Part shown: one piece after another, positions 584-34,123 of the stretch
How the letters are laid out: each line of letters starts with the position of its first letter
How positions within the stretch are numbered: the stretch's first letter is position 1
Source of the DNA: a virus
Lineage: Duplodnaviria; Heunggongvirae; Uroviricota; Caudoviricetes
DNA length: 35,575 bases
Strand: one strand, 5' to 3'
Virus record (IMG/VR): IMGVR_UViG_2579779007_000007
Translations under genes and position numbers: made by a program
Notes under the pieces: generated by a model
What the model was told of the DNA's origin: nothing
What the model saw: the letters and a program-made list of their open reading frames with translations, nothing else
Database searches by the model: none

Positions 584-1363
584 TTACTCTGCGTCTACCA
601 TGTCACATGCAAATTGAGTGTGTTTATATTCAGAATCAAATTTTGGTTCAATTACTTCAAGACGCATGTCACCTTTTTTGCTTACCCAGATGTTATAAGT
701 GTTAACACGTCCAATAGCATCCTGTTTGGATTTACCTTCCATTGCGTTTGGATTCTCTTTAGATGGCTTGAGACTTGATTTATAAACATCATACTTGTCG
801 GAATACACAAAAGATACAGGAACATCGTCTACCATTTTGATCTTAAGTTTACCGCCGTTATTATCAAAAGTTTTGTTTCCGTAGAGTTTATCTTTTACAG
901 CTTCTGTTTCCTCACCATCGATAACTTTCCATGTAAATTTTGTAGTACATGCGTAAATCGCGGTAACATTCAGTTTCTTTACTTCTTCCTGTTTCGGTTG
1001 TTCTTCTTCAATCTTCGCAGAAGTCTCTGAATCGCTCTCTGACGCGGTTTCTTCTTTAGATAATACATTCATCAAGTTTTGGATTTGAGCGTTGTATACA
1101 GCCTCCAGTGGCTGAATCTGCCCGATATTGATCATTGTATCACGAACAGTTTTATTCCAGTTGCGTTGCTCTTGTTTAAGAGACGGATCAATCTTAACAG
1201 CCTTAACATATACTTCATGAAGTTTAGAATCCAGTGCGGAGATTGACTCATTAGCACAAATAAACTTCTCTGATTTGGTTATAGCCTTAGTGCAATCAAA
1301 GGACGCAGCATCAGCACCGAAAGCAGTAGCAGAAAGCACGATAGCAGCGATAATGTTTTTCAT
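584..1363 (-). CDS. secreted protein with N-terminal DUF1311 (LprI-like, lysozyme-inhibitor family) domain and an unknown C-terminal domain
   Basis: 259 aa ORF with signal peptide MKNIIAAIVLSATAFGADAA. Motif C..A.T..E..IC...L..LD..L...Y followed by QR.W...RD is typical of DUF1311. RBS AGAGG upstream. Confidence 0.5.
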   Translation of the reverse strand: MKNIIAAIVLSATAFGADAASFDCTKAITKSEKFICANESISALDSKLHEVYVKAVKIDPSLKQEQRNWNKTVRDTMINIGQIQPLEAVYNAQIQNLMNVLSKEETASESDSETSAKIEEEQPKQEEVKKLNVTAIYACTTKFTWKVIDGEETEAVKDKLYGNKTFDNNGGKLKIKMVDDVPVSFVYSDKYDVYKSSLKPSKENPNAMEGKSKQDAIGRVNTYNIWVSKKGDMRLEVIEPKFDSEYKHTQFACDMVDAE

Positions 1364-7540: not shown

Positions 7541-7798
7541 TCAAATTCCTGTTGCTTCTACCATTTCACCATCAACCTGAACAAAGAATTTCAAATCAAC
7601 TTTATGAAGGGATTTGTATAGCTGGGCTATGGATAAGCCATGCTCATTTAATACCCGCTCTTTGTTCTCTTTACCTTTCGGTGCTTGATAGTACGCTTTT
7701 ACAATCGCTGCCAGTTGTTCACGATTAAAACGGGCAGGGCGACCGCGAGTAGCTTTAGTAGTCATAGTCATTTTCTCCAAATTAAAGTGAATGTTCAC
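7541..7798 (-). CDS. small DNA-binding protein (85 aa), HTH-like
   Basis: TRGRPARFNREQLAAIVKAYY...GLSIAQLYKSL pattern. Starts 2 nt after the stop of the upstream 201-aa gene. Confidence 0.5.
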   Translation of the reverse strand: MNIHFNLEKMTMTTKATRGRPARFNREQLAAIVKAYYQAPKGKENKERVLNEHGLSIAQLYKSLHKVDLKFFVQVDGEMVEATGI

Positions 7799-7800
7799 CT

Positions 7801-8406: not shown

Positions 8407-8492
8407 ACACCCTCCTTAAATCTTAATACCGTATTTATCAAAATATCAACAATTTAATAAATACCTTCATATTTCGTAATGAGGGTAATTAC

Positions 8493-10400: not shown

Positions 10401-10472
10401 TAACTCGCCGTCCTTCGGGGCGGCTTACTCCTAAATATTGTTAATCCAATAACAATTAAATAAGGGGTAATT

Positions 10473-10967: not shown

Positions 10968-10977
10968 GGGGTAAATC

Positions 10978-12489: not shown

Positions 12490-12534
12490 TAACCAACGGG
12501 GGCGCAATGCCCCCAATTAATTAAAGGTGATTAA

Positions 12535-14547
12535 ATGCTTAAATTTCGCCGCGATCTTAACGGTTACGGTGGAGTTATTAATGAAGGGCATAACGATCAA
12601 TACGAATTTGAAATTGCTTTCTCAAGTACACAGCCTTATCAGCGCCAATTTTGGGATGAGCAAAATCAAGAAATGGTGGTATTAGATGAAATTCTGGTAC
12701 ATACACCGGAAGCGGTTGATCTGTCTCGTCTGAATAATAACGCTCCGTTGCTGTTCAATCACAATTTCGATAATCACATTGGTGTAGTTTGTAACGCTCG
12801 AATCGATGCGGATAACGTAGGTCGTGCTCTGGTTAAGTTCTCCAAGCATGGGACTTTGGCTAATGATATTCGTAATAAAGTCATTGAAGGTACGATGGAA
12901 AAAATTTCGGTCGGCTATGACATTAAAGAATATCACATCGACTACACCAAAGGACAATTGATTGTTACTAAGTGGGCACCCTATGAACTCTCATTTGTCA
13001 CCGTTCCCGCAGACGATACGGTCGGTTTAAATCGCTCTCTAAATACTATCACAGTTAATTTGGAGGCTAAACGCGATATGACTAAAGAACAAATCGAAGA
13101 AATCAAAGAAGAACAAGAACCCGCTCAGGTTGAAGAAACTCCGGTAGAAGAAAATAAAGAACCGGAAGTTGAAGAAACTCAAGAGCGCCAAGTTGAAGAG
13201 AATAAAGAAGATGAAAATCTCGAAGACGGAAAAGACGCTGAACATCCTGAAAGTGTTGATGATGATAGTTCAACTGTTCGGGAAACAGAAGAAGTAAAAG
13301 AAGAACGTGAAGCTGCTCCGGTTGAAGAAGAAAAAACCGAGGAAGTGGCTGAACGTTCCGAAGAAGACGAATTAGAAATTCGCGAAATTGCACGCGAGTT
13401 AAATATTAACGAAGACGATGAAGAATTTAAACGCGCATTGGCAAATAAAGAAATTACGCCGGAAGCATTCCGCACTAAGGCACTAAATAACATTACCAAT
13501 GCTCAACGTAATAACGAACAAATTAATAAGGAACAAATCATGGAAAAAACTTTCGATCTTAATAACGTAATCCGCTCCCTGGTAGATGGCGACGTGCTCG
13601 GCGCTAACGAAGCTGAATATTCCGCAATGGCTGCTACTGCAACTATGCAGCGTGGTCGTGCTGCTCGTGGTGGCTCTGTATTCGTTCCGGCTGCTGCTAT
13701 GCGTGCTGCTGCTGATGGCAACACCAAAGCTAATCTGGTTGCTATCACTGACGAAAAACTGATGACTGAATCCTACATCGAAATGCTGATGCCTCAGAGT
13801 GTTTTAGGCCGCCTCGGGGTGACTGTTTATAGTGGCTTGACTTCTCCGACCGCTATTCCAAAAATGACTAAATCCAGCGTTGACGCTTTCGGATTCGTAG
13901 ATGAAAATGGCGCTGCCCCCGAGTCACATGCGGAATTTTCGAACGTGAAACTGTCTCCGAAAACTTTTGCTGGTGGCAACCCGATCAGCCGTCAGTCGCT
14001 GAAAACCGTTCCGGGCATCGCTACCCTGATCACCGATCACATTAACAAATCTGTTCGGATCAAACTGGAACAACTGATTCTGTCTGATAAAGAAAATGCT
14101 CGTGGTCCGGCTGGTCTGGTTAAGCAACTGGTAGACGCTAGCCGCGTTACCAAGAAAGCTGCTTTCTCTTATAAAGATTTCCTCAAGGAGATTGCTCAGC
14201 TTACGGACGCTGGCGTTCCTGCTCAGGCGATCAAGTTTGCGATGAGCGGTGCAACTGCTGCTGAACTGGAATCTACCCTGAAAGATAACGGCGTTTCCGG
14301 TTATATCATCGAAAACGGCAAACTGGCTGGTTACGAAGTAGTTACTTCTGGCGTTATTCCGGCAGATCACATCGTTCTGGGTGACTTCTCCGGTATTACC
14401 ATCGGTGAGTGGGGCGGTCTGGAACTTGACATGGATCTAACTACATATCGGGATCGTGGGGCGGTAGTGCCTAGAATCTTTGTAGATTTGGACTACGTTG
14501 TAGCACAGCCGGAAGCGCTGAAAGTTCTTCACATCTCCGCTGACTGA
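12535..14547 (+). CDS. fused prohead protease (HK97/S78-like) - acidic scaffold-like linker - HK97-fold major capsid protein
   Basis: 670 aa. Residues 1-170 match the S78 prohead protease pattern, residues about 180-330 are E-rich, the C-terminal 340 aa are HK97-MCP-like. Ends with TGA. Confidence 0.8.
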   Translation: MLKFRRDLNGYGGVINEGHNDQYEFEIAFSSTQPYQRQFWDEQNQEMVVLDEILVHTPEAVDLSRLNNNAPLLFNHNFDNHIGVVCNARIDADNVGRALVKFSKHGTLANDIRNKVIEGTMEKISVGYDIKEYHIDYTKGQLIVTKWAPYELSFVTVPADDTVGLNRSLNTITVNLEAKRDMTKEQIEEIKEEQEPAQVEETPVEENKEPEVEETQERQVEENKEDENLEDGKDAEHPESVDDDSSTVRETEEVKEEREAAPVEEEKTEEVAERSEEDELEIREIARELNINEDDEEFKRALANKEITPEAFRTKALNNITNAQRNNEQINKEQIMEKTFDLNNVIRSLVDGDVLGANEAEYSAMAATATMQRGRAARGGSVFVPAAAMRAAADGNTKANLVAITDEKLMTESYIEMLMPQSVLGRLGVTVYSGLTSPTAIPKMTKSSVDAFGFVDENGAAPESHAEFSNVKLSPKTFAGGNPISRQSLKTVPGIATLITDHINKSVRIKLEQLILSDKENARGPAGLVKQLVDASRVTKKAAFSYKDFLKEIAQLTDAGVPAQAIKFAMSGATAAELESTLKDNGVSGYIIENGKLAGYEVVTSGVIPADHIVLGDFSGITIGEWGGLELDMDLTTYRDRGAVVPRIFVDLDYVVAQPEALKVLHISAD

Positions 14548-14676
14548 ACTAGCGTAGAACCTTCTGAACCTTCCCCCGATTTGGGGGAAGAAAATCTGAT
14601 TCCATCTCAGGAAGAAGAAGTTCAAGAGGTTACGGCGAAAGCCACAGTTAAAAAACAACGTAAAACTAAAGAATAA
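14548..14676 (+). other. in-frame 42-codon extension after the capsid TGA (candidate readthrough segment)
   Basis: Same frame as 12535..14547, no ATG. Encodes TSVEPSEPSPDLGEENLIPSQEEEVQEVTAKATVKKQRKTKE, then TAA. Confidence 0.45.
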
Positions 14677-14681
14677 TAATT

Positions 14682-14710
14682 AGCCCTGCCTTAACGGTGG
14701 GGCTTTTTTG
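14682..14710 (+). terminator. intrinsic terminator after the capsid extension
   Basis: AGCCCTGCC-ttaac-GGTGGGGCT followed by TTTTTT. Near-identical copy at 20632..20660. Confidence 0.7.
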
Positions 14711-14739
14711 TATGTAAATACTCCATAAAGGGGGTAACT

Positions 14740-15030
14740 ATGTTCAAATTATCAGAATCACAATTATCAAGAATGTTTAAGAGTGCTCCTGTATTTTCGG
14801 TGGAAGGTGGTAAATCAATTCGTGCTTATCATGAAATTACCACTACCGACGAACAAGGGGTAATTACAGAATCAGAATTTCTATTTTGTCGTGAGGGAGA
14901 CTTAAATCAGGGTGATGTTGTCATTGTAGACGGTGAACGCTTCAAAGTTCAATACGTTAAGCGCAATGGTGATAATACTTCTGATTGCTTTATTGCTCGT
15001 GCAGGGGGTACACATGCTCGCTACCGTTAA
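14740..15030 (+). CDS. head-tail connector/adaptor protein (putative, 96 aa)
   Basis: Position after capsid gene, RBS AAGGGGGTAA. Confidence 0.55.
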   Translation: MFKLSESQLSRMFKSAPVFSVEGGKSIRAYHEITTTDEQGVITESEFLFCREGDLNQGDVVIVDGERFKVQYVKRNGDNTSDCFIARAGGTHARYR

Positions 15031-15439
15031 TAATATGCCTAGACTGAAAATCAAACGCGCCTTGCAGGATATTATCGAACAAGATTTAGGTCTGGCTTTA
15101 AACGTAGAACAAACTCAGCAAGGCTTTATTAGTGATGACGTGGTTTGTTGGATTACCGGAATGAATGAGACTTACAATAGGGTCCGTGGTGGTAATGCAA
15201 TGCAAGCTGAATGCGTTATCGAAATGCAGTTGTATTCTCAGAATCATGAAACCAAAATTCATGAGGGTATTTGCCAGATAATCCAGATTCAGCCAGATAA
15301 CCCACGTTTTAAAGATTTGGGCTTCTCAATTTCAGATATCACTCCAGTAGCCTCTAATACCGATTATGACGATGATTCTAGTGATGGGGGTATCGTTGGG
15401 ACACTTAGCCTTAAATTTTCTTATCTAGCGCGTTTTTAA
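15014..15439 (+). CDS. head-tail joining / tail completion protein (putative, 141 aa)
   Basis: Start chosen at the ATG preceded by AGGGGG, overlapping the upstream stop. The ORF-track start at 14933 is probably too far upstream. Confidence 0.5.
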   Translation: MLATVNNMPRLKIKRALQDIIEQDLGLALNVEQTQQGFISDDVVCWITGMNETYNRVRGGNAMQAECVIEMQLYSQNHETKIHEGICQIIQIQPDNPRFKDLGFSISDITPVASNTDYDDDSSDGGIVGTLSLKFSYLARF

Positions 15440-15448
15440 GGGGTAATA

Positions 15449-16282
15449 ATGAATATTACACAAGATAACTTAGATATTTTCACTGGATCACATGTTGAAG
15501 TGTCGATCTCTAACCAGATAGACAATCAGGTCGACTTTTTCGATCCTAGCTTTAGTTCTATGGAGAACATCGCAGCATTCCCTACGCTAACCGAATCCAC
15601 AGAGATAGAAACTCTGGAAGAGTACGATCAGGACGCTACGGGGAAACTTGCTGGTTATCGTAGACTGGAACCGACAACACTCACATTAAACCGTGTTCTT
15701 GACGATGAACATCAAGCAATGTTGATGAAAGCGGTAGAGGATAAAACACCTTTACGCTTCCGTATGTTCTATGTTGTGAACTCTGGCTATAGTGCTGCTA
15801 ACACTGGTTACTATGTCATCTATGACGCTTATGTCACTAGTCACAAAACCCGTGGCGCAGATAACAAAGCTGTAACACTGGAATTTAAACTTGAACCAGA
15901 TGGCGGGATTTTGGCAAGGGGTATAGCGACCGAGGGAAAAATTCTGCGACAAGGGGATTATGGCGTAGGTGCAGGTGTACATCCATTCACGGGTCCAATT
16001 GATAGTGATGCTTTAGCAGGAAACCGTTTCGTAACTTACAAGGGAACTGCTAGCGGTAATCCATACTCAGCCGACACATCATTAATTCACCTTCAAGCTA
16101 ATGAGCATGGCGCATGGCAATTAACCTGTAATACTTCCGGTGCACCACGTTTACGTGTCCGAAATATTCAGGAAAACGGTCGCTCTGAATGGATCAAGGT
16201 ATATTCCACCAATGAGAAACCGACACCTAGCGAAATTGGCGCAGTGGCTAAGACTGACCGGATCGATTTCGGCGAATACTAA
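15449..16282 (+). CDS. tail-tube-like protein with C-terminal fibre-like extension (paralog of the 20030 gene)
   Basis: 277 aa. N-terminus (NLDIFTGSHV...GKL...LTLT) aligns with the 156-aa protein at 20030. C-terminus carries KPTPSEIGA, also present in the tail fibre. Confidence 0.55.
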   Translation: MNITQDNLDIFTGSHVEVSISNQIDNQVDFFDPSFSSMENIAAFPTLTESTEIETLEEYDQDATGKLAGYRRLEPTTLTLNRVLDDEHQAMLMKAVEDKTPLRFRMFYVVNSGYSAANTGYYVIYDAYVTSHKTRGADNKAVTLEFKLEPDGGILARGIATEGKILRQGDYGVGAGVHPFTGPIDSDALAGNRFVTYKGTASGNPYSADTSLIHLQANEHGAWQLTCNTSGAPRLRVRNIQENGRSEWIKVYSTNEKPTPSEIGAVAKTDRIDFGEY

Positions 16283-16315
16283 AGGATTCTCCTACCTAAA
16301 TAAAACATGAACGTT

Positions 16316-16346
16316 GGGAGGTTAACGCCTCCCTTATTCCTGTTTT
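16316..16346 (+). terminator. putative intrinsic terminator
   Basis: GGGAGG-ttaacg-CCTCCC followed by a T-rich tract. Confidence 0.45.
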
Positions 16347-16364
16347 ATAGTGAGGTGATTCTAG

Positions 16365-19300
16365 ATGCAATCAATCCAATTTAAACGCACACAAACGGCT
16401 GGTAAAAAGCCGACGCCGGAACAATTATCACAGGGTGAGATCGCCTTACAACTGGCGGACCATGTGATTTACACCAAAGACAAAAATAATAACGTAGTCC
16501 AAATTAGTGTTTCTCCAGAAAAACACGCTGAACTTAACACTAAAGTAGACAATAACAAAACTAGCACTGACCGTGTTATTGCTTCCAACAAACAAGAGGC
16601 CGCTAATAATCTGGCTAGTGCTAAAGCTGAACTGAATCAGACTATTACCACGAAAGATACAGCGACCAATAAGCGCATTGATGCTACCAACACCACTGTT
16701 AGTAACTTAACCCAGACAGTTACGGCAAATAAAACCGATGCCGACACTAAGATCAATAACCTTACGGGGACCGTATCTGCGAATAAGACCGCAATTGAAA
16801 GAACCGTTGCCGCAAACAAATCTGATGCAGATAGCAAACATGCAGCTTTAACGAAAACGGTCACTGACAATAACACCGCGATTAACAACAAGGTTAATAC
16901 CACTAACACCAACGTTAGCAACTTAACTAAAACTGTTACTGCAAATAAAACCGATGCAGATAACAAAATTTCTAGCTTAACTAGCGCGGTTGCAGCTAAC
17001 AAGACAGCGATCGAAAAGACTGTTTCCGACAATAAGAAAGACGCGGATACTAAGATTACCAATCTTACTGGCACTGTTAATAGCAACCATACCGCAATTA
17101 ACAACAAGGTAGACCAGAATAAATCTTCTACTGATGCCGCAATTGCAGCCGCTAACAAACGAATTGATGGTATTGAAGGTAGCAATGATGCTCTTTACAT
17201 CAAGAAGAATACCAATACTAAGCATGGTGGGTATCTGTTAAGCAAGACAGCTAACTATCTGGAAGACCAGACATCACGAGATCTTAACTACTTTGGTGCT
17301 TTCCGTACCAATGGTCAAGATGGACTCATGGATCTAACTCTTAACGTTCCTCACTCTTCCGGTAAAGCGCACGGTCGCGGATTTACTTTCCGTTATGCGT
17401 CTGGTGGATCTCGTGTTGAAACCTATGGTTTTGATAGAGAAGGACAGAAGAACTTTAGCTATAAGATGTATCACGAAGGTGATAAACCGACTCCTGCTGA
17501 AATTGGCGCATATACCAAAGGCGAAATTGATAAGATGTTTATTAAAAATGTCACAATGTCTGTTCCTTCTGGTAGTGAATCCCGTGCTTATTTCAAGATT
17601 GCTACGGCTACGATCCCACAAAATGGTCGTATGGTAATGCTTCGTATCTTCGGTGGTAATGGTTATAACGTTAACTCCTATGATCAGGTTGATTTCCTTG
17701 AAATTGTTATCCGTAGTGGTAACGATAGACCTAAAGGTGTTAGTGTTGCTGCATATCGTCGAAATGCTCTTAACGTTCATCAAGTATTTGCGGTTAATAC
17801 TTCCGGTGATAACTACGACATTTACGTTAACTACGGTCGTTATACTGATAACGTTATTGTCGAATATGGTAAGACTAGCGGTGTTTCACTGACTGTTCAT
17901 GACACCCCAGATATGACTAACGTTAAGCCGTCTACTGGTGTTACAGATGGACGTGTTATTACAATGTTCAATACCGAAAACAAGGCCGGAACGTTGATGT
18001 TTGATAATAACGGTCAGGGAACATATGATATTGTCAGTTTGAATAACGATTCAGGTACTGGTAAAAAATATCTGCGTAAATTCCGTAGTAAAGCCGCAGA
18101 AACAATCTGGCATGAAACTGTTCAAGGTAACGTATATCGTTTAGCGACTGGCACTACCGATTCTAGCGAAGTTCTACGAATCACTGGTCGCACTATGTAT
18201 ACTGGTAAAGCTGTTTTTGATGCCGGATCTAATACTATTCGTATGCAGCGACCGAATGGTCAAAGTAACTATTTGGAATATTGGGATAACCGTAACGGTG
18301 CAAATAAACGTCAAGGTTGGATCGGTTATGGAAATGCCGATACTAACGCTATGCAGATGTATAACGATAGCGGTACTAACAATATTGGCTTAGAACAAAG
18401 CGGTCAAATCTCTCTGAATACTGGATCTACTAAAGTAGTTTATACCAACGGCGAGTATGTATCTGCTAACTCAAATGCATTCCGTATGATTTACGGTAAC
18501 TATGGTGCATTCTGGCGTAATGATGGTCAAAACGTATATTTTCTGTCTACTGCCGAAAATGATAAATTTGGTGGTTGGAACGGCTATCGTCCATTCATTT
18601 ACAATCTGGGTAGCGGTAATGTTACTTTGGGTGGTGATGGTAACGAAGGTGCATTAGTCTTAGAACGTGCAAGTCGTGCAGCTCGTTTTGCTGGAAACGC
18701 TTTCATCAAAGGTCAACATTTAACACTTGATGCTGGTGCTGGACAATCCCGCGACTATTTCCGTTTTAACCATTGGGGTGATAGCAATAACGCTCGCGAC
18801 AACATTCTATATCTCGAAGACAGCAAAGGACGCCATTTCAGCACCGAACGTAATATGGCTACAGGTGCATTAAAAGCATACTTCTTAGGAGATCTTGAAG
18901 TTGCTGGTCAAATGCGATGGGGTAAGAATACCGGACAATCTAGCTTCAATATTCGTGCATGGGGTAATGATACTCGTAAACAAGTATTAGAATGCGCAGA
19001 TGAAAGCGGCTGGCATTTCTACACACAGCGTGCTGGCGGTCCTGATACTACCGCAATCGAGTTTAGCGTAAACGGTAAAATTAACGCTCCCCGACTGTCT
19101 ATTAGTCAGGATGCAACCATTCCTAAGTTTAATAGCGGTTTTGGTGTTGGTGTTGCTAACGGATTGGGTGGAAATTCTATTGTTTTAGGCGATAGTGATA
19201 CTGGATTTAAACAAAACGGTGATGGTGTCCTTGATACCTACGCTAATAACGTTAATGTTGTTCGCCATACGTCAGGCGGTGTTACATTTAACCGTCGTGT

Positions 19301-19973
19301 TGTTGTTGCTAACAAAAATGGTTTAGGTTATTCCGATATCTCTGATGTAACTCGTGACCGTGCTCCATTCCTGGTTAACATGGATAGTATTAAGGGGTCT
19401 GCTGCATATTTCCCGATCATCGCTGGTTACAGTAACTTAGGTGATGTTGGTTATCGTCAGTCCTTCGAGTTTGGTTGGACGGGTAGCGGGTCGAATAGCA
19501 CATGGCGTACTGGTATTATCCGTATGCGTGGCGATAACGCCAACGGGCAGCAAGCACGCTGGGAATTTACTATGGATGGTGATTTTACCTGCCCCCGTAA
19601 CGGTAGCTTTAACGATGTTTACATTCGCTCTGACTCCCGTTTGAAGATTAACAAGGAAGAATTACAGGACGGCGCATTAGAGAAAGTAAACTCCCTGAAA
19701 GTCTACACCTACGATAAAGTTAAATCTCTTTCAGATGACACAGTGGTTAAACGCGAAGTAGGTATTATTGCTCAGGATCTGGAAGAAGTGTTGCCGGAAG
19801 CAGTAGGTATTCAATCCACCGAAGATCCAGAACAACCGGAAGCAATTAAGACTATTTCTAACTCTGCTGTTAATGCCTTGATTATTAAAGCGATTCAGGA
19901 AATGGACGCCAAATATCAAGCTAAGATTGAAGCATTGACTAAAGAGATTGCCGAACTCAAAGCAACTAAATAA
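16365..19973 (+). CDS. long tail fibre with C-terminal S74 intramolecular-chaperone domain
   Basis: 1202 aa. Repetitive shaft, KPTPAEIGAY motif, C-terminal YIRSDSRLKINKEEL... matching the autoproteolytic chaperone domain of T5 pb1 and endosialidase-type fibres. Confidence 0.85.
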   Translation: MQSIQFKRTQTAGKKPTPEQLSQGEIALQLADHVIYTKDKNNNVVQISVSPEKHAELNTKVDNNKTSTDRVIASNKQEAANNLASAKAELNQTITTKDTATNKRIDATNTTVSNLTQTVTANKTDADTKINNLTGTVSANKTAIERTVAANKSDADSKHAALTKTVTDNNTAINNKVNTTNTNVSNLTKTVTANKTDADNKISSLTSAVAANKTAIEKTVSDNKKDADTKITNLTGTVNSNHTAINNKVDQNKSSTDAAIAAANKRIDGIEGSNDALYIKKNTNTKHGGYLLSKTANYLEDQTSRDLNYFGAFRTNGQDGLMDLTLNVPHSSGKAHGRGFTFRYASGGSRVETYGFDREGQKNFSYKMYHEGDKPTPAEIGAYTKGEIDKMFIKNVTMSVPSGSESRAYFKIATATIPQNGRMVMLRIFGGNGYNVNSYDQVDFLEIVIRSGNDRPKGVSVAAYRRNALNVHQVFAVNTSGDNYDIYVNYGRYTDNVIVEYGKTSGVSLTVHDTPDMTNVKPSTGVTDGRVITMFNTENKAGTLMFDNNGQGTYDIVSLNNDSGTGKKYLRKFRSKAAETIWHETVQGNVYRLATGTTDSSEVLRITGRTMYTGKAVFDAGSNTIRMQRPNGQSNYLEYWDNRNGANKRQGWIGYGNADTNAMQMYNDSGTNNIGLEQSGQISLNTGSTKVVYTNGEYVSANSNAFRMIYGNYGAFWRNDGQNVYFLSTAENDKFGGWNGYRPFIYNLGSGNVTLGGDGNEGALVLERASRAARFAGNAFIKGQHLTLDAGAGQSRDYFRFNHWGDSNNARDNILYLEDSKGRHFSTERNMATGALKAYFLGDLEVAGQMRWGKNTGQSSFNIRAWGNDTRKQVLECADESGWHFYTQRAGGPDTTAIEFSVNGKINAPRLSISQDATIPKFNSGFGVGVANGLGGNSIVLGDSDTGFKQNGDGVLDTYANNVNVVRHTSGGVTFNRRVVVANKNGLGYSDISDVTRDRAPFLVNMDSIKGSAAYFPIIAGYSNLGDVGYRQSFEFGWTGSGSNSTWRTGIIRMRGDNANGQQARWEFTMDGDFTCPRNGSFNDVYIRSDSRLKINKEELQDGALEKVNSLKVYTYDKVKSLSDDTVVKREVGIIAQDLEEVLPEAVGIQSTEDPEQPEAIKTISNSAVNALIIKAIQEMDAKYQAKIEALTKEIAELKATK
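16640..17170 (+). repeat. intragenic tandem repeats encoding two ~69-aa shaft repeats
   Basis: Repeated NLT.TVTANKTDAD.KI..LT..V.ANKTAIE.TV. The low-complexity repeats create the spurious antisense ORF 16637..17185. Confidence 0.6.
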
Positions 19974-20029: not shown

Positions 20030-20500
20030 ATGTCTCAATTTAATGATATTTTTACTGGTGGTCTGGTAAGTCTGTTCTATCACGCTGATACCACTAACAC
20101 CGCTCTCGATCACTCCGGTTACGAAGAAATTAAAGAGTGTGCTGGTTTTCCTGAAACTGGTATCGAGCGCGGTACTGTAGAAGTTAAATCCTTCTCTTCT
20201 CAGTATAACCGTAAGCTGGTAGGGAAGCTGAACGTTCCTGATCTGACTCTTACGGTGAATTACATCCCCGGGGAGAGTGTCCATGAGAAGCTCATAAAGG
20301 CTGCCGAAGACGGTACTCGAATTCAGATTAAGATTGAATACTATGTTGATGCAGCAAAACAGACTGGTATTCGCACCGCTTTCAACGGCTTCATTTCTAA
20401 AGTTGCTATGAACGGTGGCGATGAAGAAGTGGTAACTAAAGAGTTTACCTTCGCGGTGGACGGAAAGCCGATCAAACAGGAAATCTTCACTGCCGGATGA
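20030..20500 (+). CDS. major tail tube protein (putative)
   Basis: 156 aa, upstream of the chaperone and tape-measure genes. Paralogous to the N-domain of 15449..16282. Ends with TGA. Confidence 0.6.
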   Translation: MSQFNDIFTGGLVSLFYHADTTNTALDHSGYEEIKECAGFPETGIERGTVEVKSFSSQYNRKLVGKLNVPDLTLTVNYIPGESVHEKLIKAAEDGTRIQIKIEYYVDAAKQTGIRTAFNGFISKVAMNGGDEEVVTKEFTFAVDGKPIKQEIFTAG

Positions 20501-20626: not shown

Positions 20627-20631
20627 TTTTA

Positions 20632-20660
20632 AGCCCTGCCTTAATGGTGGGGCTTTTTTA
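20632..20660 (+). terminator. intrinsic terminator after the tail-tube extension
   Basis: AGCCCTGCC-ttaat-GGTGGGGCT followed by TTTTTT. Confidence 0.7.
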
Positions 20661-20674: not shown

Positions 20675-21181
20675 ATGGCAAATGTCGTTAAAGTTCCTGG
20701 CTGGATCGGGTCATCTGCTGTATCGGTGACGGGTAAGCGATGGATGAAAGAAGCACTAACAGCTTTAAAAGTTCCGGCTCCGCGTAATATGTCGGCAATG
20801 GCTGGTCGTGGTATGGATACGGTTGTAGCTACTGCTGCATGGTCTACTTCATTGGGTAATAACTGGGGGGTAACTGCTTCAAACTATCCTGTTTCCGGTA
20901 TGCAAAGCAAAGGATCTATGGAGAACCCCGAAAACGTGGGCGTAGGGCGTCTGATTGGCGTTATCGTTGGTCAATTCAATGGCGGTACTCCTACTATGGC
21001 TGTATATCTCCAGAACGGTAGAGCGGGGAATATAACCGTTAATTTGGGTGGTGCTACTGTCACTGTTCCTTATAACAGTATGCAAAGTGGTTTTCATTAC
21101 TATTGGTTAAGCAATCCTCCGGCTGCTTTCCTCAATAACATTAAGAAGACTGGCACTAAGCAGACTTTGAAAATCTCTTAA
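20675..21181 (+). CDS. hypothetical tail-associated protein (168 aa)
   Basis: ORF with RBS GGAG, located between tail tube and chaperone genes. Confidence 0.5.
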   Translation: MANVVKVPGWIGSSAVSVTGKRWMKEALTALKVPAPRNMSAMAGRGMDTVVATAAWSTSLGNNWGVTASNYPVSGMQSKGSMENPENVGVGRLIGVIVGQFNGGTPTMAVYLQNGRAGNITVNLGGATVTVPYNSMQSGFHYYWLSNPPAAFLNNIKKTGTKQTLKIS

Positions 21182-21223: not shown

Positions 21224-21532
21224 ATGAATATTAATGAAATGCTGAAAGCTCTTTCTCCGAAACGCGAATCTCTGACCATCGGTGGATTCACTTTCTATGC
21301 TCGCCCTATGTCAGTAAAAGAATTTAACGAACATGTTTTCAATACCGATAAAGATGACCGTGATGAACGTTCTATTCTTCGTTGTATTGAAGATGAAGAC
21401 GGTAAACCAGTATTTGAATCTATGGAACAAGTTAAGGCACTGTATACTAACGTCCGCAGTGAATTAATCGGTTTGGTTGCTCAAGCGTCATTGATGCAAG
21501 ATCCGGCAGTAATTGAAAACGAGGTAAAGTAA
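21224..21532 (+). CDS. tail assembly chaperone (gpG-like, putative)
   Basis: 102 aa acidic protein immediately upstream of the tape measure region. Confidence 0.5.
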   Translation: MNINEMLKALSPKRESLTIGGFTFYARPMSVKEFNEHVFNTDKDDRDERSILRCIEDEDGKPVFESMEQVKALYTNVRSELIGLVAQASLMQDPAVIENEVK

Positions 21533-25658: not shown

Positions 25659-26078
25659 ATGCTAAAAACTAGGCTTATCACCGATTACATCAATTCTTTA
25701 ATAGGTCAGGAGTTCGTTCAGGGTGAGAATGATTGCAATCTCATTGCATGTAAGATCATCGATATTCTCGCTGGTACTGACCTATATAATTCTCTTTATA
25801 AAAAATATTCAACTAAAGAAGAAGGCTTGAAAATCTGCAAAGAATTAAGCGGGTATTCAAATATCCTTCAACCAATTAAGAAACATTTCAAATTAGTCAC
25901 TGATGATTTACAGGACGGCGACTTACTGGTCACAGCCCACAAATTAGGAAACCGTAATTATTATTCCGTAGTTCCTCATTATTCCGGTTATGGCCTCGTT
26001 GAAGAAGATGGTATCTGGATGACCATTCCTGTTTCAGACATTGACTATGAACAAGTTTATAGATTCGGGGGTGAATAA
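25659..26078 (+). CDS. tail assembly protein with NlpC/P60-like Cys-His motif (gpK-like)
   Basis: Start at the ATG preceded by GGAGG. Motifs QGENDCNLIAC and VVPHYSGYG. Stop overlaps the next start. Confidence 0.5.
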   Translation: MLKTRLITDYINSLIGQEFVQGENDCNLIACKIIDILAGTDLYNSLYKKYSTKEEGLKICKELSGYSNILQPIKKHFKLVTDDLQDGDLLVTAHKLGNRNYYSVVPHYSGYGLVEEDGIWMTIPVSDIDYEQVYRFGGE

Positions 26079-29000
26079 TGGGATTTGAAATATTAGTAGG
26101 CGCGGTTATTGCTGGTGCGTCTGCTGGGATGGCTGCTGCTGCAACATTTTCTGTTATGACCGCAGTCGCTATCGGTATGGCTGCTGGTGCAATGACCTTG
26201 ATCGCTTCCACTGTAGGCGCACCAAAAACACCGAAAGTACAAAGCCCAGATAATGCGGTGACACTAGGAACATCAAACGATCCGAAGACAGTATTACCCG
26301 TTCTTTTCGGTACTACCCGCACGGGTGCAATCTGCGTTTACAAGGCAATTTCTAAGCAAGAAAACAATAAGTTAGTGCAAATCTTCGCTATTGCCGAGGG
26401 TGAAATCGACCATTACAAAGCACTCTTTATTGATAATAAAAATGTTCTTGTTGGTAAGAACATGACGATCCGTGATGGTATTCTCGATAAGGGCAACATT
26501 AAAGAAGAATATCGTAAAGTATTAGAAGTCGAGTTCCGCACGGGCAAGAATCCTAACACCGCTTTGTCGCTGGCAAAACGTCACTTAGGGTCAGACTGGA
26601 ACGACAACTACAAAGGCAATGGTATTGCAACCATGTGTATTGTGTTACGTCGTGATGACAAATCTCTTGCTGCTGGTGTTGATATTCTCCAGCCTAATAG
26701 CCAGGTGGCAGTAGACGTTTGCGGGTTAAAGATTCGTAACCTTGAAACCAATGCTATTGAGGCTAGCACTAACGGCGTGGACCAGATTTTCCATTATCTG
26801 ACAAATACAAAATATGGTCTTAGTGTACCAATTGAAAACATCAACGTTGATTCATTCCTGAAAGTACGTAAACAAGTACGCCAGATGGACCTACATTCAA
26901 ACGGTGCATGTGATCCGAACGCCAGCTTTAAAGAGAACTTGACCAGTCTTATGCAGACTTTCGGCGGGGTGATGTTCGAATCCTTCGGAAGAATTACCCT
27001 GAAACTGGATGCTCCTGATATTGTTAAGCATACCTTCAATGAAGACAATATTATGATGGGTAAGGTATCACTGAAAACAGGTGGCACTAACGGTTATTTC
27101 AATACCATTAACGCGATGTATCAAGAACCATCAATCGACTATTCAGAGCAAATGCTACGTTATCCGGCTGATGCTGAAAACGATGCTACTATTCGTCAAG
27201 ATGGTCGAATTATCGCTAAAGATATTGAATATCGTTTTGTTAAGTCTAAAGCCCAGATTGATAAACTTGCGAGTATTGAACGAAATAAATCTCGTATCAC
27301 TCAGGTTATCAGCTTTATGACTACTGACGCATTCACTGCCGAAGTTTGGGATGTTATCAGCGTAACCTATGATGAATTGAAACTGAATAATTCCTTATGG
27401 CGTATTACTGCAATTGATCGCTCGATTGATTCTGGTATTGCTGGGATGATGACTATCACCGCTACAGAATATAATTCTCAGGTTTATACTGACCTGAACT
27501 ATGCGGCTAACCCAGATAACCGACCAAGTGGTTTACCGGATTCAATGACAGTACAGAAGCCTACTAATTTCAGAATTAAGGCAACTGGCGAGACGATTTA
27601 CGGTAAAAACGTTACTTTGACATGGGATGCGCCGGAAGATTTTAACCGTTATGGTTTTCAGATTGATTACCGTGTAAGCGGATCACCTAACTGGATTAAG
27701 CTGGGACAGACTTCACAGCAAATTTTCAGTGTCAATGCACTGGCAAAAGATCGTTCTTATGATTACCGAGTTTGTGCTTTCGGTATCATCGCTCGATCCG
27801 ATTGGGTAGAACTGGTTAACCAGAATCCGACTGTTACCTATGAATTGCCGACTCCGGTTATTCGAATCAAAAATCAGGGTAGCACGCCTGGTACTTTCGA
27901 AGGCAATGATCTGATTATCGAATGGGAAAATCAGCAACAATTAGATGTTGAGATCAACGGTGAAACTAACAAGTTTAGTGACCTGTTTGAAGCATACATT
28001 ATCAAGGTGACTAACAAGGCTGGTAAGTCTATTCAGTACCGTACCCGCGATCCTGAATCATGGACTTATACGCTTGATATGAACCAGTTTAACGGCCTTT
28101 CGCGTCAACTGACGGTAGAAGTATCAGCTAAGGGCTATAACAACTCAGAGAGCGCCCCAGCGCGTTTAGTGGCTATCAACCCACAACATAAGCCAATGAA
28201 AGGTTTTAGTGCGCGTGGTGGCTTTAATACTGCGTTTGTTAGCTGGGCGGATGACGTAGAACATGACTATGCAGGGTCAATCATCCAGTATGCAACCGAC
28301 AACACTTTCTCAGATGCAAGGGCAGTAAGTACGAATAGTGTTAGCCATACTTCCTTTGATATTGCTGACGGTGATTATTATATCCGTGGTGCTCACTACG
28401 ATATTTTCGGTATGGATGATGCTGTTTGGTCTGAACCGTATTTCATGCAAATGAAATCTACCATTAGCTGGGACGATCAGGACAAAGAAGCACTGGAAGA
28501 TCTGATCGGTTTACAAGATCGCTTAGATGAAACTATCGCGGATGCTATTAAGCAAGCTGGCGCTAATGCCGATGCTAAAATTGATGCAATGCATAAGCAA
28601 ATCACTACCGAGACGGGTAAAACTGTTCAAGCCTCAGCCGATACCTTAAAGAGTCTGATTGCTTCTGGTGATAAGGCAAGTTCAACTAAGATTGATCAGG
28701 TTAAAGCTGAACTGAAAGGCGATATCACCAAAGAAGTTAGCGCCTCCGCTACAACCCTGAAACAAGCTATTGCTACCAGTGAAGCAGCAAGCGCAAGTAA
28801 GATTGACCAAGTTCGGGTAGAAATGGATGGCAAGATTGCTGGTGTGAATCAGGAAGCGGACGTTAAGATCGATGCTTTGAAAGGAACCATTAACAGCAAA
28901 TACAATCTAGCGGTTAATGCAGATGGTCGCGTGGCTGGTATTCACATGAGCGCAACTAACGATCCGGCACAACCGACTAAAATCATCTTTACGGCTGATA

Positions 29001-29854
29001 AAATTGCTGTAGCTCCGCAGAACGGGACCGATGTTTGCCCGTTTGGTATCGAAGGTAACAAGGTTTATCTCGATAATGCGATGATTCGTAATGCTGCAAT
29101 TGGCACAGCCCAGATTAATGATGCGGCAATTACTACCGCTAAGATCGGCAATGCTGCAATTAACAGCGCGAAGATTCAGGACGGGGCGATCACCAATGCG
29201 AAGATCGTAAACGGTGCTATTGATAACGCCAAAATTGGTAACTATATCCAGTCTTCCAACTGGAACGGATCAACCGGATGGCATATCAACAAGAACGGGT
29301 CCGCTACGTTCATGAACGCTACCGTTAAAGGTAATATCACGGCTGATTCTGGTACTCTGAACAACGTCACGATTAACTCTAGCTGTGTTATTAAGGGTAT
29401 GCTTGAAGCTACTCAGGTTAAGGGTGATTTCGTTAAGGTGATTGGTCGTAAGTTCCCACACCGTGATGTTAACGTTGATAATGGTTATGGCGGCTATCCG
29501 CAAGGTACAGTAACCGTTCGCGTTGAAGATGATCACAAGTTCGATCGTCAAATCGTTATTCCGGCGATTAGTTTTGGTGGATTGCGAGCGCGTGAAGGGT
29601 CGAACAATAATACCTATTACGACACCTGTCGCCTGATTGTTCGTAAGAATGGGTCAGAGTTGTATAATAGGGCGTATGGCGGTAATACTGGTCTTTACTC
29701 AGGTGTTATTGATATGCCAGCGGGTAAAGGTGCTGTGACCTTGACCTTTGAAGTGCAATCAAGCGCAATCAACAACTGGACGCCTAGCACATGGATCAGT
29801 GATTTAACTGTAATGGTAACTAAAAAAGCCACTACGGGTATTACTGTTTCTTAA
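26078..29854 (+). CDS. central tail fibre / host specificity protein: gpI C-domain-like N-terminus fused to gpJ-like body
   Basis: 1258 aa. N-terminal Gly/Ala-rich hydrophobic segment plus PVLFGTTRTG resembles the lambda gpI C-terminal half. FN3-like repeats. C-terminal DDHKFDRQIVIPA...VIDMPAGKGAVTLTF...VMVTKKATTGITVS resembles the lambda J receptor-binding domain. Confidence 0.85.
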   Translation: MGFEILVGAVIAGASAGMAAAATFSVMTAVAIGMAAGAMTLIASTVGAPKTPKVQSPDNAVTLGTSNDPKTVLPVLFGTTRTGAICVYKAISKQENNKLVQIFAIAEGEIDHYKALFIDNKNVLVGKNMTIRDGILDKGNIKEEYRKVLEVEFRTGKNPNTALSLAKRHLGSDWNDNYKGNGIATMCIVLRRDDKSLAAGVDILQPNSQVAVDVCGLKIRNLETNAIEASTNGVDQIFHYLTNTKYGLSVPIENINVDSFLKVRKQVRQMDLHSNGACDPNASFKENLTSLMQTFGGVMFESFGRITLKLDAPDIVKHTFNEDNIMMGKVSLKTGGTNGYFNTINAMYQEPSIDYSEQMLRYPADAENDATIRQDGRIIAKDIEYRFVKSKAQIDKLASIERNKSRITQVISFMTTDAFTAEVWDVISVTYDELKLNNSLWRITAIDRSIDSGIAGMMTITATEYNSQVYTDLNYAANPDNRPSGLPDSMTVQKPTNFRIKATGETIYGKNVTLTWDAPEDFNRYGFQIDYRVSGSPNWIKLGQTSQQIFSVNALAKDRSYDYRVCAFGIIARSDWVELVNQNPTVTYELPTPVIRIKNQGSTPGTFEGNDLIIEWENQQQLDVEINGETNKFSDLFEAYIIKVTNKAGKSIQYRTRDPESWTYTLDMNQFNGLSRQLTVEVSAKGYNNSESAPARLVAINPQHKPMKGFSARGGFNTAFVSWADDVEHDYAGSIIQYATDNTFSDARAVSTNSVSHTSFDIADGDYYIRGAHYDIFGMDDAVWSEPYFMQMKSTISWDDQDKEALEDLIGLQDRLDETIADAIKQAGANADAKIDAMHKQITTETGKTVQASADTLKSLIASGDKASSTKIDQVKAELKGDITKEVSASATTLKQAIATSEAASASKIDQVRVEMDGKIAGVNQEADVKIDALKGTINSKYNLAVNADGRVAGIHMSATNDPAQPTKIIFTADKIAVAPQNGTDVCPFGIEGNKVYLDNAMIRNAAIGTAQINDAAITTAKIGNAAINSAKIQDGAITNAKIVNGAIDNAKIGNYIQSSNWNGSTGWHINKNGSATFMNATVKGNITADSGTLNNVTINSSCVIKGMLEATQVKGDFVKVIGRKFPHRDVNVDNGYGGYPQGTVTVRVEDDHKFDRQIVIPAISFGGLRAREGSNNNTYYDTCRLIVRKNGSELYNRAYGGNTGLYSGVIDMPAGKGAVTLTFEVQSSAINNWTPSTWISDLTVMVTKKATTGITVS

Positions 29855-32394: not shown

Positions 32395-34074
32395 TTAAAT
32401 TCCAAATTCTTGTAATGGACCTGGTATTTCTTCTTCTGGTTTCCAGTTCTTATCTGTCAGCATGTCTAAACATGGATGCAGAACAAGCCCGTTACTCTCC
32501 AGAATCTGCCTATCATTGATAGTCTTCAAATCAACGAAGATCCGGCCTTTCCTCGGTCCTCTTGAATTTTCTATTACAACTCTCTGGGTCTTGCCATCGA
32601 TGTATTCCAGTACAAACAAGTTTTTGTACTTGTCAATCCTGCTACACCCGATCCGTTTTAGAGCTTGCTTAATCTTAAACCGGACCTTAATGCGATCCTC
32701 GTTGTAAACATCTTCTAAATCAAATTCTGCGAGCTTCTCCCAGCCTTGAGAGTCAACAGAATACATTTCCTCTTCTGCCATCTTAAGTTGATTGTAGAGT
32801 GTTTCACGCTCGCTATTGAGGGTAGTAATCTGATCGGCTAGCTCCTTCGTTGCTCCTGTCATAGCAGAAAGGGTAATCAGGTTATCAATCTTGCGTGATA
32901 TTTCATCAATCTGTACTTTCAAAGCCGGAACCGGATTAGCCTTATCTTCAGCAATCCAGATTTTATCAGCCAGCAATTGCAATACAGCTTTCTCTAATTG
33001 GTCGCCGCGAAAACTCCAGTTTGTATGCACACATTCAATACGACTAGAGCGCATTGCATCGCATGAATAACGATATTGGTTAGGCCGTCTGTTTGTTCCT
33101 TTCACCTTAACCATAGCGGAACCGCAATGTTCACATTTCAATAGACCAACACCACTAAGCAAGGGAATAGGTTTAGCTTCTTCTTTGTCTCCAAAGTTAC
33201 ATGCTCTAACACCAATGCTTTTCTTAAGGTGATAAAACTCAGCGTCATCTAGCACACGAGGATAATAATCCTTTAACTCATACTTAACGCCATCTACAGA
33301 GATTTCCTTGATACCAATCAAAGCGCGGGTATGGAACAACCTTTCAATCATTGCCCGTGACCAGTTTGAATGCCTCTTGTGACTTGCGGCTGGTGGTGGT
33401 GTGTATGTCGCGTTAAGGTGATCCAGTATCTCGGCGGTTGACCGTCCATTCCTGCGTAATTCCACAACTTCCTGAACAATAGGGAAGAAGACCGGATGAG
33501 GAAGCACATAACCAGATGTGGTATCAGTCCACCACATATTCTTTCCAATTTCCTCGATTGCAACAGCCGGATTTTGTGGATTTTCTTGATGAGCTTTAAT
33601 CTTAATCAGTGCGCTTGAGTTAGTACGATTGCGCTTAGTCTGGCTTTCCTCATTACCACGGATGAATAAAAGGATGGAGAACATCAGGTCCATCGGGTTA
33701 GCGGTAACAGTATCAAGCGAGTAGATCTTGTTATCCATGCCAGTAACAATGGTTATCCCCCTACGGATGATTGAAAGGAATAACTCCTGCGCACTGACAA
33801 TATCGGCACGGGATAAACGGTCCAAGTTTTCGATGAATAGCCAGCTACCAACAGGAACGGATCTACCTATTGCATCAAGGAAACGAGATAGCGCCCCTGT
33901 TTTGGAGTTAGCACCCTTAAACGCAGATACACCCAGATCCTGATAATCATTTACCAGTTCAAGGTCATACTTTACCGCAATCTCTCTAGCCATCCTGATT
34001 TGTCGTTCATAACTCGAACCATCATTCTGACGCATAGACGAGAAGCGAATATACGAATACAGTTTAGTTTTCAT
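32395..34074 (-). CDS. large serine recombinase (candidate integrase)
   Basis: About 560 aa. N-terminal resolvase-type motif YIRFSSMRQ, recombinase domain, zinc-ribbon cysteines (CEHCGSAM...YRYSC), C-terminal coiled coil. ATG start at 34074; the ORF track uses a TTG at 34089. Confidence 0.85.
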   Translation of the reverse strand: MKTKLYSYIRFSSMRQNDGSSYERQIRMAREIAVKYDLELVNDYQDLGVSAFKGANSKTGALSRFLDAIGRSVPVGSWLFIENLDRLSRADIVSAQELFLSIIRRGITIVTGMDNKIYSLDTVTANPMDLMFSILLFIRGNEESQTKRNRTNSSALIKIKAHQENPQNPAVAIEEIGKNMWWTDTTSGYVLPHPVFFPIVQEVVELRRNGRSTAEILDHLNATYTPPPAASHKRHSNWSRAMIERLFHTRALIGIKEISVDGVKYELKDYYPRVLDDAEFYHLKKSIGVRACNFGDKEEAKPIPLLSGVGLLKCEHCGSAMVKVKGTNRRPNQYRYSCDAMRSSRIECVHTNWSFRGDQLEKAVLQLLADKIWIAEDKANPVPALKVQIDEISRKIDNLITLSAMTGATKELADQITTLNSERETLYNQLKMAEEEMYSVDSQGWEKLAEFDLEDVYNEDRIKVRFKIKQALKRIGCSRIDKYKNLFVLEYIDGKTQRVVIENSRGPRKGRIFVDLKTINDRQILESNGLVLHPCLDMLTDKNWKPEEEIPGPLQEFGI

Positions 34075-34081
34075 ACCATTT

Positions 34082-34123
34082 CCAAACAAAAACGCCCCTA
34101 CCGCGTATTATAACGATAGGGGC
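34082..34123 (-). terminator. minus-strand terminator upstream of the recombinase
   Basis: On the minus strand: GCCCCTATCG-loop-CGGTAGGGGC followed by GUUUUUGUUUGG. The loop contains TATAAT. Confidence 0.4.

Follow-up and report, generated by a model that had tools for sequence, protein, structure and literature searches.

How a distal tail fibre of the T-even kind could be carried on the non-contractile tail of a lambda-like phage is the question raised by IMG/VR virus record IMGVR_UViG_2579779007_000007 (Caudoviricetes), a stretch of 35,575 nucleotides that is analysed here over its full length and referred to as the window. The window is 100% identical to a prophage of ∼35 kb in the bovine Escherichia coli strain CE0007a and contains a long tail fibre gene on the + strand (16365..19973). 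By homology, this gene is shown to encode a trimeric side tail fibre of a lambda-like E. coli siphovirus prophage. The reading favoured here, with a probability of roughly 0.6, is that the fibre is of the self-processing gp37 type and is mounted through an upstream paralogue of the tail tube protein that bears a gp36-like end. The fibre itself is routine, as S74-bearing gp37-like fibres are well known. The interest lies in the proposed anchor, within a module that appears to combine a T-even distal half-fibre, a coiled-coil extension, an anchor joining a tube paralogue to gp36, and a non-canonical gp38-like cap.

Kinship of the fibre with gp37

The fibre gene is divided as follows, in window coordinates.

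16365..19973, + strand: side tail fibre gene, 1202 aa, ATG start, TAA stop
16365..16517, + strand: gp37-type N-terminal domain, aa 1-51, presumed docking end
16527..17174, + strand: predicted alpha-helical coiled-coil shaft, aa 55-270, 12 units of 18 aa
16677..16892, + strand: 72-aa repeat, copy 1, aa 105-176
16893..17108, + strand: 72-aa repeat, copy 2, aa 177-248
17232..19049, + strand: gp37-like beta-structured shaft, aa 290-895
18330-18602, + strand: Gp34_trimer-type domain, aa 656-746 (Pfam PF21446, 4.6e-26; PDB matches to T4 gp34)
19050..19628, + strand: distal tip, aa 896-1088, hypervariable cassette ending in the conserved junction NGSFNDVYIR
19629..19646, + strand: SDSRLK motif, aa 1089-1094, predicted autocleavage between R1088 and S1089
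19629..19970, + strand: intramolecular chaperone domain of 114 aa (aa 1089-1202), expected to be shed as the fibre matures

The open reading frame (ORF) had been called with exactly these coordinates in an earlier note made from the DNA letters alone, and a GAGGTG Shine-Dalgarno sequence lies 7-8 nt upstream of its start. The note did not recognise the relationship of the protein to gp37. Residues 290-1199 align collinearly with residues 71-969 of gp37 from Cognac, an RB49-like phage of the genus Krischvirus, at 72% identity, and residues 1-51 align with its residues 4-54 at 37% identity (both BLASTP). The N-terminal 47 residues also share 40% identity with residues 4-50 of T4 gp37 (E 6e-13). 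The protein matches phrog_1699, the distal long-tail-fibre subunit (E 1e-127), with its N-terminus falling on positions 6-51 of that family (E 3e-18), and at the nucleotide level the gene is 73-84% identical to Krischvirus gp37 genes. A segment of ∼235 aa (aa 52-289) is absent from the gp37 proteins of both Cognac and RB49. Given the full-length collinearity with Cognac gp37 and the N-terminal matches, the alignments identify the fibre as a complete gp37 orthologue in which ∼235 residues, mostly predicted coiled coil, are inserted after the N-terminal domain.

Cognac gp37 has the same N-terminal domain, shaft domains, tip type, and SDSRLK S74 chaperone as the fibre, which differs from it in being longer by the ∼235 coiled-coil residues and in being housed in a siphovirus. 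The surroundings also differ. The prophage is without gp34 and gp35 genes, none being found in its annotation by the Prokaryotic Genome Annotation Pipeline (PGAP), and its gp36-like connector appears to be fused to a tail tube paralogue. Moreover, the prophage has a gp38-like gene, whereas no gp38 stands beside gp37 in Krischvirus. The tail module of the prophage is lambda-like and non-contractile, with a tube protein, a tape measure protein, and J. The fibre gene sits between the head-completion genes and the tube gene, and there is no discontinuity in GC content at the fibre, the whole module having 39-49% GC in 1-kb windows.

A tube paralogue as proposed anchor

The proteins that would hold the fibre, and the central fibre beside which it would stand, are encoded at the following positions.

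15449..16282, + strand: proposed fibre anchor, 277 aa, ending in RIDFGEY
15473-15937, + strand: tail-tube-like part of the anchor, aa 9-163
15986-16279, + strand: gp36-like C-terminal connector of the anchor, aa 180-277
20030..20500, + strand: major tail tube protein, 156 aa (phrog_158, 2e-21; Pfam Phage_TTP_12)
26078..29854, + strand: lambda-J-like central fibre, 1258 aa, second receptor-binding device (Ig_GpJ_C, 7.6e-34; Phage_Tail_Tip, 6e-20)

The 277-aa protein, overlooked by the earlier note as a part of the fibre device, resembles the 156-aa tube protein of the same phage (29% identity, E 5e-13) and matches phrog_158, 'major tail protein'. In an AlphaFold2 (AF2) model, its N-terminal ten-residue blocks mostly have a predicted local distance difference test score (pLDDT) of 74-91, with dips to 51-61. 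Foldseek aligned this model with lambda gpV (8k36_A) at a probability of 1.0, an E value of 2e-8, and a target-normalised template modelling score of 0.62, and also with further tube proteins, a comparison that informs only on the tube fold. The protein has no sequence match in the PDB. The bulk tube subunit is probably the smaller of the two paralogues, the 156-aa protein, as the same strong hairpin follows both its gene and the capsid gene. These near-identical G+C-rich hairpins (AGCCCTGCCTTAAyGGTGGGGCT), each with a T-run, lie on the + strand at 14682-14704, 3′ of the capsid gene, and at 20631-20655, 3′ of the 156-aa tube gene, and look like terminators or stabilisers behind the two most abundant structural genes.

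The C-terminal part of the 277-aa protein points to gp36. Its last ∼100 residues and the C-terminus of RB49 gp36 align from end to end (BLASTP E 1e-5), a profile of its 14-member family aligns with gp36 in hhalign (probability 82.7%, E 9.6e-6), and its C-terminus falls on positions 396-495 of the 496 in phrog_16472 (E 0.0026). The final residues are alike as well: RIDFGEY in the 277-aa protein, VIDFGTF in RB49 gp36, and VQDFGYY in T4 gp36. In T4, gp36 uses its C-terminal end to bind gp37 at the N-terminus (PMC9603124). The N-terminus of T4 gp36 binds gp35 at the knee of the fibre; in its place the 277-aa protein has the tail tube fold. By analogy, the gp37-type N-terminus of the fibre would bind the gp36-type C-terminus of the 277-aa protein (...RIDFGEY), and the net result would be a T-even distal half-fibre grafted on a siphovirus tail through a tube-fold ring. 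We hold with moderate confidence that the fibre docks on such a ring by a joint of the gp36 C-terminus/gp37 N-terminus type.

The same architecture recurs in other proteins, where it is more pronounced. An exhaustive HMMER search with residues 154-277 returned 128 proteins. Most of the top 20 matches, proteins of 342-1209 aa in total, have the domain at about aa 155-275, preceded by a tube-like N-terminal domain. Four of the longer homologues match both the tube PHROG (phrog_158) and the gp36 PHROGs (phrog_16472/phrog_1425) with E values of 1e-13 to 2e-30, and these four end in DFGTF, DEGTF, DAGTF, or DAGEF. In one 971-aa homologue (P0048), the tube-like N-terminal domain, which is below the PHROG threshold, continues into a complete fibre. 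A search for loci related to the 1209-aa fusion of tube and gp36 (P0024) gave no viral contig. Gene order also ties the two proteins together, as in all 48 related loci the gene immediately downstream of the anchor gene encodes a fibre that starts with an IQFKR... motif, and the same adjacency is found in three diverged loci (L059, L060, and L062). One of these, L059, is a 141-kb record for Escherichia phage DCP80 filed under Tevenvirinae (PQ671644.1), whose bases 1-18560 form a module of head and tail genes of this prophage type, among them those for a 698-aa anchor of the tube and gp36-like kind and a 745-aa fibre; the record is probably a chimeric assembly or includes a contaminating prophage contig.

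Several observations weigh against an anchoring role. The statistics that link the 277-aa protein itself to gp36 are moderate (E ∼1e-5, hhalign probability 83%), and they may be inflated by a KPTPxEIGA-type motif that is common in fibre modules and that this fibre carries at aa 374. Nor are a hexameric tube-fold ring and trimeric fibres obviously matched, as six arms would have to serve two fibres. Alternatively, the 277-aa protein could be a tube subunit with decoration or a ring of the terminator type, bearing a generic fibre-like domain, and the fibre could attach elsewhere, for example at a collar where tube and tip meet or on J. Tube proteins with C-terminal decoration domains are common, and the Foldseek matches to gpV include its Ig-like domain. 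The known anchors of siphovirus side fibres, such as those of Ur-lambda and T5, are collars (PMC12617516), and both the modest gp36 scores of the short protein and the wide spread of the KPTPxEIGA motif among fibre proteins would fit this explanation. Nevertheless, we judge it unlikely. The gp36 alignment reaches the very last residues (..IDFGEY, ..IDFGTF, and ..DFGYY in T4), the longer homologues clearly consist of a tube domain plus gp36, and the N-terminus of the fibre is the end by which gp37 binds gp36. In addition, the anchor and fibre genes stay adjacent even in very diverged modules, and neither a collar-type protein nor an N-terminal collar domain of the lambda Stf type was found in the five fibre-region proteins that were scanned.

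The attachment through a tube paralogue favoured here can be set against the side fibres already known from siphoviruses. Ur-lambda has four Stf trimers whose N-terminal domains assemble into a dodecamer where gpV meets gpM (PMC12617516). Like the fibre of the window, Stf (with Tfa) is a side fibre on a lambda-like tail beside J; proximally it is a long coiled coil, its distal part is related to gp37, and it accelerates first contact (PMC12617516). Lambda Stf, however, is encoded after J, folded by the separate protein Tfa, and anchored by its own N-terminal collar domains, whereas the fibre gene of the window precedes the tube gene and its product has an internal chaperone, a gp37-type N-terminus, and a separate putative anchor of tube fold. 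No tfa-like gene is present in the PGAP annotation of the prophage. In T5 and DT57C the collar is made by a dedicated protein, p132 and LtfC respectively (PMC12617516). Their systems (pb1 with p132 and LtfAB with LtfC) likewise pair a siphovirus side fibre, of the non-essential type, that has a C-terminal intramolecular chaperone with a dedicated anchoring protein; in T5 this protein forms a dodecameric collar that surrounds the tube, while the anchor proposed for the window is a tube-fold paralogue with a gp36 end.

The presence of two receptor-binding devices, a side fibre next to a J-like central fibre, was proposed in the earlier note, and both are borne out by the domain matches. Alongside J, the side fibre would likely make a fast, reversible first contact, as do lambda Stf and T5 pb1.

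A wider reading of the family, for which we see about even odds, is that siphovirus prophages of enterobacteria carry a second tube protein, incorporated in the tube or sitting on it, with a gp36-type arm whose ...DFGxF end plugs into the N-terminus of a gp37-type fibre. On the same reading, the T-even distal half-fibre would be a portable module of the gp36 C-terminus and gp37, optionally with gp38, the arm ranging from ∼120 to ∼1050 residues across the family and the module being exchanged at ∼80% nucleotide identity between lytic myoviruses and temperate siphoviruses. The anchor family comprises 86 clusters at 90% identity, nearly all annotated as 'hypothetical', from E. coli, Shigella, Salmonella, Klebsiella, Enterobacter, Proteus, Providencia, and Edwardsiella. 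It may constitute a third way of anchoring side fibres on non-contractile tails, besides the collars of lambda Stf and T5 p132, and, if so, the joint between the gp36 C-terminus and the gp37 N-terminus on a tube-fold ring would offer a convenient socket for swapping fibres on engineered particles. In the literature, no description was found of an anchor of this tube protein/gp36 type or of this type of prophage, which is not proof of novelty.

Predicted self-cleavage, the distal tip, and the gp38-like protein

An S74 chaperone with an SDSRLK site had been recognised at the C-terminus of the fibre in the earlier note, and this part of it holds. Pfam Peptidase_S74 (PF13884) matches aa 1089-1147 with an E value of 1.1e-13 and 51.6 bits against a cut-off of 22, and the chaperone domain extends to the last residue of the fibre. 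The comparison of alleles drew on 12 E. coli prophages and 40 IMG/VR loci. Among the 12 E. coli prophages and 36 of the IMG/VR loci, the S-x4-K pair, Ser1089 and Lys1094, is invariant wherever the domain is present (about 45 relatives), while the third residue of SDSRLK may be S, R, A, G, or E. The ratio of nonsynonymous to synonymous substitution rates (dN/dS) of the domain is 0.1-0.28. One allele (L005, E. coli 14EC029, 2738-6013) encodes a 1091-aa fibre without an S74 domain and with a different end (...GRVNPSDYGNFD...), and the gp38-like gene downstream of it is intact.

The last 114 residues of the fibre align with the C-terminal fragment of gp37 from Salmonella phage S16 (PDB 6F45_A). 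According to PMC7917993, citing the structure paper on S16, S16 gp37 autocleaves its last 113 residues between the serines of DLNVS^SDRRIKK (the caret marks the cut), which exposes the docking surface for gp38. The T2-like fPS phages have DVYIR^SDGRLKI at the corresponding site (PMC7917993), and the junction of the window, DVYIR^SDSRLKI, is near-identical to that of T6 gp37, ...NGSFSDVYIRSDSRLKINKEEL. No sequence match in the PDB to T5 pb1 or endosialidase was obtained with the fibre at the thresholds used. Cleavage between R1088 and S1089 is thus a prediction well supported by homology. The C-terminal chaperones would drive trimerisation and the folding of the tip and would then be cut off at R1088/S1089 through Ser1089 and Lys1094, in the manner of S16 gp37, endosialidase, and T5 pb1.

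Upstream of the cleavage site, the fibre is at its most variable. When 13 alleles are aligned, conservation is moderate from residue 1 to ∼890 and 70-100% in the chaperone domain, whereas tip residues ∼896-1075 are only 3-28% identical to those of 10 of the 12 E. coli relatives. The tip of L005 is intermediate in its first part (55% and 38%), and one relative alone, L002, shares the tip of the window. At least four tip types are present in this alignment, and that of the window closely matches the tip of Cognac gp37. From the variability of the tip among alleles and from its occurrence in Cognac, we infer that host range would depend mainly on swaps of the tip cassette, whether with other prophages or with lytic phages of the genus Krischvirus. 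The earlier note had looked to the shaft as the variable feature; the variation that would bear on host range lies in the tip (aa ∼896-1088) instead.

Beyond the tube gene lies a further gene that had been missed as a part of the fibre device.

20675..21181, + strand: gp38-like protein, 168 aa
20690-20803, + strand: T2/T6-type attachment domain of the gp38-like protein, aa 6-43

The product matches Pfam Gp38_N (PF21721) with an E value of 4.2e-15 and 55.9 bits against a cut-off of 25, as well as phrog_1121, the tail fibre adhesins (E 3e-35). Its first ∼60 residues align to T6 gp38 (aa 7-50) and keep the motif VPGWIGSSAV..TG.RWM. The conserved tryptophans of gp38 are prongs that insert into gp37 (PMC7917993); W10 and W23 are retained in the gp38-like protein, and the third tryptophan of T6 gp38 is replaced by asparagine. 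Full-length relatives occur in Shiga toxin (Stx) phages (45% identity), where they adjoin a tail fibre gene, and relatives at ∼36% are named 'gp38' in the T4-like phages PEi20 and Kosakonia 305. In the Klebsiella locus L062, the gp38-like gene lies directly 3′ of the S74 fibre gene. The gp37 and gp38 pair of T2, T6, and S16 likewise combines a self-cleaving chaperone and a DVYIR^SDxRLK junction with a small Gp38_N protein. The pair of the window differs in that the tube gene separates the gp38-like gene from the fibre gene and in that the C-terminal domain of the 168-aa protein has neither glycine-rich motifs nor hypervariable segments. Cleavage of the fibre would expose the end ...NGSFNDVYIR, and the gp38-like protein probably docks there by its T6-type N-terminal attachment domain, so capping the tip; the case for this cap is weaker than that for the chaperone domain.

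A number of results speak against the cap. The C-terminal part of the gp38-like protein contains no glycine-rich motifs and does not align with T6 gp38, and the AF2 model of the protein, built on a shallow alignment, has a pLDDT of 36.9 and is unusable. Across 13 prophages the protein is nearly invariant while the tips vary. A diverged group of relatives (class III) has chaperone-bearing fibres but no gp38-like gene, L005 has the gene though its fibre is without the chaperone domain, and Krischvirus phages of the same tip type have no gp38. As these same-tip phages do without it, the tip presumably can bind a receptor without gp38. No sequence match to the gp38-like protein was found in the PDB, and no co-variation was seen of its N-terminal alleles with alleles of the fibre junction or of the chaperone. 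Many of the diverged relatives without gp38 (L039-L046, L049, and L051) have ∼1 kb extra between the fibre and tube genes. The sole extra segment that was read, L040 9570-10476, encodes three paralogous ORFs of ∼100 aa sharing an 'FDIPNGW' motif, which may be fibre-tip accessories.

Much of this would also suit a gp38-like protein that is not the tip adhesin of this fibre, and that serves as an assembly factor like T4 gp38, binds elsewhere on the tail, or is a leftover. Near-invariance beside differing tips, loss from chaperone-bearing class III together with retention in chaperone-less L005, the want of polyglycine motifs, and the tube gene interposed in the window are all compatible with this explanation, which we rate as possible although on the doubtful side. 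The N-terminal domain is of the T2/T6 type that attaches to the virion (Pfam 4e-15) and not of the T4 gp38 type, and the docking end ..NGSFNDVYIR is kept in every chaperone-bearing fibre and in T6 gp37. In Klebsiella L062 the gene adjoins that of the fibre, in Stx phages it stands behind a tail fibre gene, and the function of a folding factor is already supplied by the chaperone domain. A capping role for the gp38-like protein is therefore retained as a probable part of the device.

The predicted coiled-coil shaft and the surrounding prophage

The inserted segment behind the N-terminal domain forms the proximal shaft. Over aa 55-270, hydrophobic residues recur with a period of 3.60 residues (18 per 5 turns), a peak reached in none of 200 shuffles, and the segment contains no proline and three glycines. 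On this period and composition, the shaft is read as an alpha-helical coiled coil of 12 units of 18 residues, which agrees with the long fibre with a shaft described before and would give the fibre a reach estimated at ∼30 nm. The heptad-like sub-repeats of that description are replaced by units of 18 residues, a heptad model having been rejected because the hydrophobic period is 3.60 and not 3.5. Two antisense ORFs on the - strand, 16637..17185 (182 aa) and 16977..17225 (82 aa), overlap the repeat region; with translations rich in Leu and Val, they look like a side effect of the skewed codon content of the coiled-coil segment.

Two tandem repeats within the shaft are real, although the unit is 72 aa and not the ∼69 aa first given. 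The copies are identical at 49 of 72 residues (68%), compared with a mean of 9 and a maximum of 21 in 10,000 shuffles. The corresponding DNA is identical at 142 of 216 positions (66%), with a longest in-register exact run of 17 nt. Tandem Repeats Finder reported nothing over the repeats and a DNA repeat search gave only a weak 216-nt periodicity with 60-76% identity, so the repeats are detectable at the protein level only. At synonymous sites the copies are saturated (a proportion of synonymous differences, pS, of 0.83), and for this reason the 72-aa unit is taken as an old duplication. The shaft is under purifying selection, with a dN/dS of ∼0.10-0.12. Values of dN/dS were discarded for aa 271-560 in L004, L006, L008, and L010 and for the chaperone domain in L006 and L010, where indels break the codon register.

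The earlier note also expected the number of repeats to vary by recombination and thereby to change fibre length, a claim to be checked by comparing copy number among relatives. The survey of copy number relied on the E. coli genomes and the IMG/VR loci, a protein search with the N-terminus having given 20 sequences, mostly partial. In all 22 sequences of this shaft type, the window included, the landmarks RIDxIEG and KPTPxEIGA stand at aa 266 and aa 374. Because both are identically placed, each of the 22 is read as having two 72-aa copies, and for the 72-aa unit this invariance, the saturation at synonymous sites, the absence of any exact run longer than 17 nt, and the low dN/dS refute the expected variation.

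At the level of the family, however, the lengths of shafts do differ. The KPTPxEIGA landmark is found at four positions (aa 374, 346, 370, and 315). It is at aa 346 in 14 sequences with a different, shorter shaft sequence, and at aa 370 in the diverged class, of which one member, L039, has it at aa 315. L039 and L040 are near-identical save for a clean in-frame indel of 55 aa whose ends lie within the short direct repeat AAAGTTGATG. The two E. coli shaft classes are separated by 28 aa of different sequence and not by the number of 72-aa copies. Length change mediated by repeats thus happens in the family, but by these comparisons not through the 72-aa unit. A shaft that is adaptively extended by recombination between copies, on a fibre whose cleaved C-terminus is the sole receptor binder, could draw on the existence of the two repeats, on the differing lengths of the allele classes, on the indel flanked by a direct repeat that divides L039 from L040, and on the same-tip Krischvirus phages that are without gp38. 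We find this quite improbable, as there are exactly two copies in 22 of 22 same-shaft sequences, the copies are 66% identical in DNA with exact runs of at most 17 nt and a pS of 0.83, the 28-aa difference between E. coli classes is other sequence and not copy number, and variation is strongest in the tip. A shaft of fixed repeat number carrying an exchangeable tip remains the preferred description.

The prophage that carries the fibre has split hicB, of the hicAB toxin-antitoxin pair, by its insertion, and encodes a recombinase on the opposite strand.

32395..34089, - strand: large serine recombinase, 564 aa

The module of the window is complete from terminase to J and has a lysis-type gene. 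Of 5426 complete E. coli genomes, 55 contain related modules. The module is not covered by any record of the phage collection, where the only DNA matches are to Krischvirus gp37 genes, those of RB49-like T-even phages. NCBIfam gave no match for eight proteins of the region. That the region is a decaying prophage whose fibre gene no longer functions might be argued from insertion sequences (IS) within the module in some relatives and from the phage collection, which contains no isolated phage of this type. Such decay is hardly credible, given ORFs that are intact and syntenic in >45 relatives, a dN/dS of 0.1-0.28 across the N-terminus, shaft, and chaperone domain, and, in the window, the complete module from terminase to J, the serine recombinase, and the split hicB.

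A second stretch of the window is shared with the lytic genus Krischvirus, which also shares the fibre. Positions 983-1369, within an ORF on the - strand (584..1363), are 95-97% identical in nucleotides to the Krischvirus hypothetical gene RB49p262, and represent a second, more recent exchange; PGAP names the prophage gene at 584..1363 'lysozyme inhibitor LprI family protein'. That lytic Krischvirus and a temperate siphovirus have recently exchanged an entire receptor-binding fibre, along with a second gene, bears on the prediction of host range and on phage engineering.

Two further genes of the module deserve mention. The ORF at 12535..14547 (670 aa), named 'major capsid', has a Klebsiella homologue with Peptidase_S78 and Phage_capsid domains and is probably a fusion of a prohead protease and a capsid protein; it is separated from the anchor gene by just two small genes, so that the set of head-tail connector genes is unusually short. 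The ORF at 21224..21532 (102 aa), 3′ of the gp38-like gene, has orthologues in L003, L009, and L011 and is called 'cytochrome' by PGAP in some genomes, which is probably a misannotation, a tail assembly chaperone being likelier by position.

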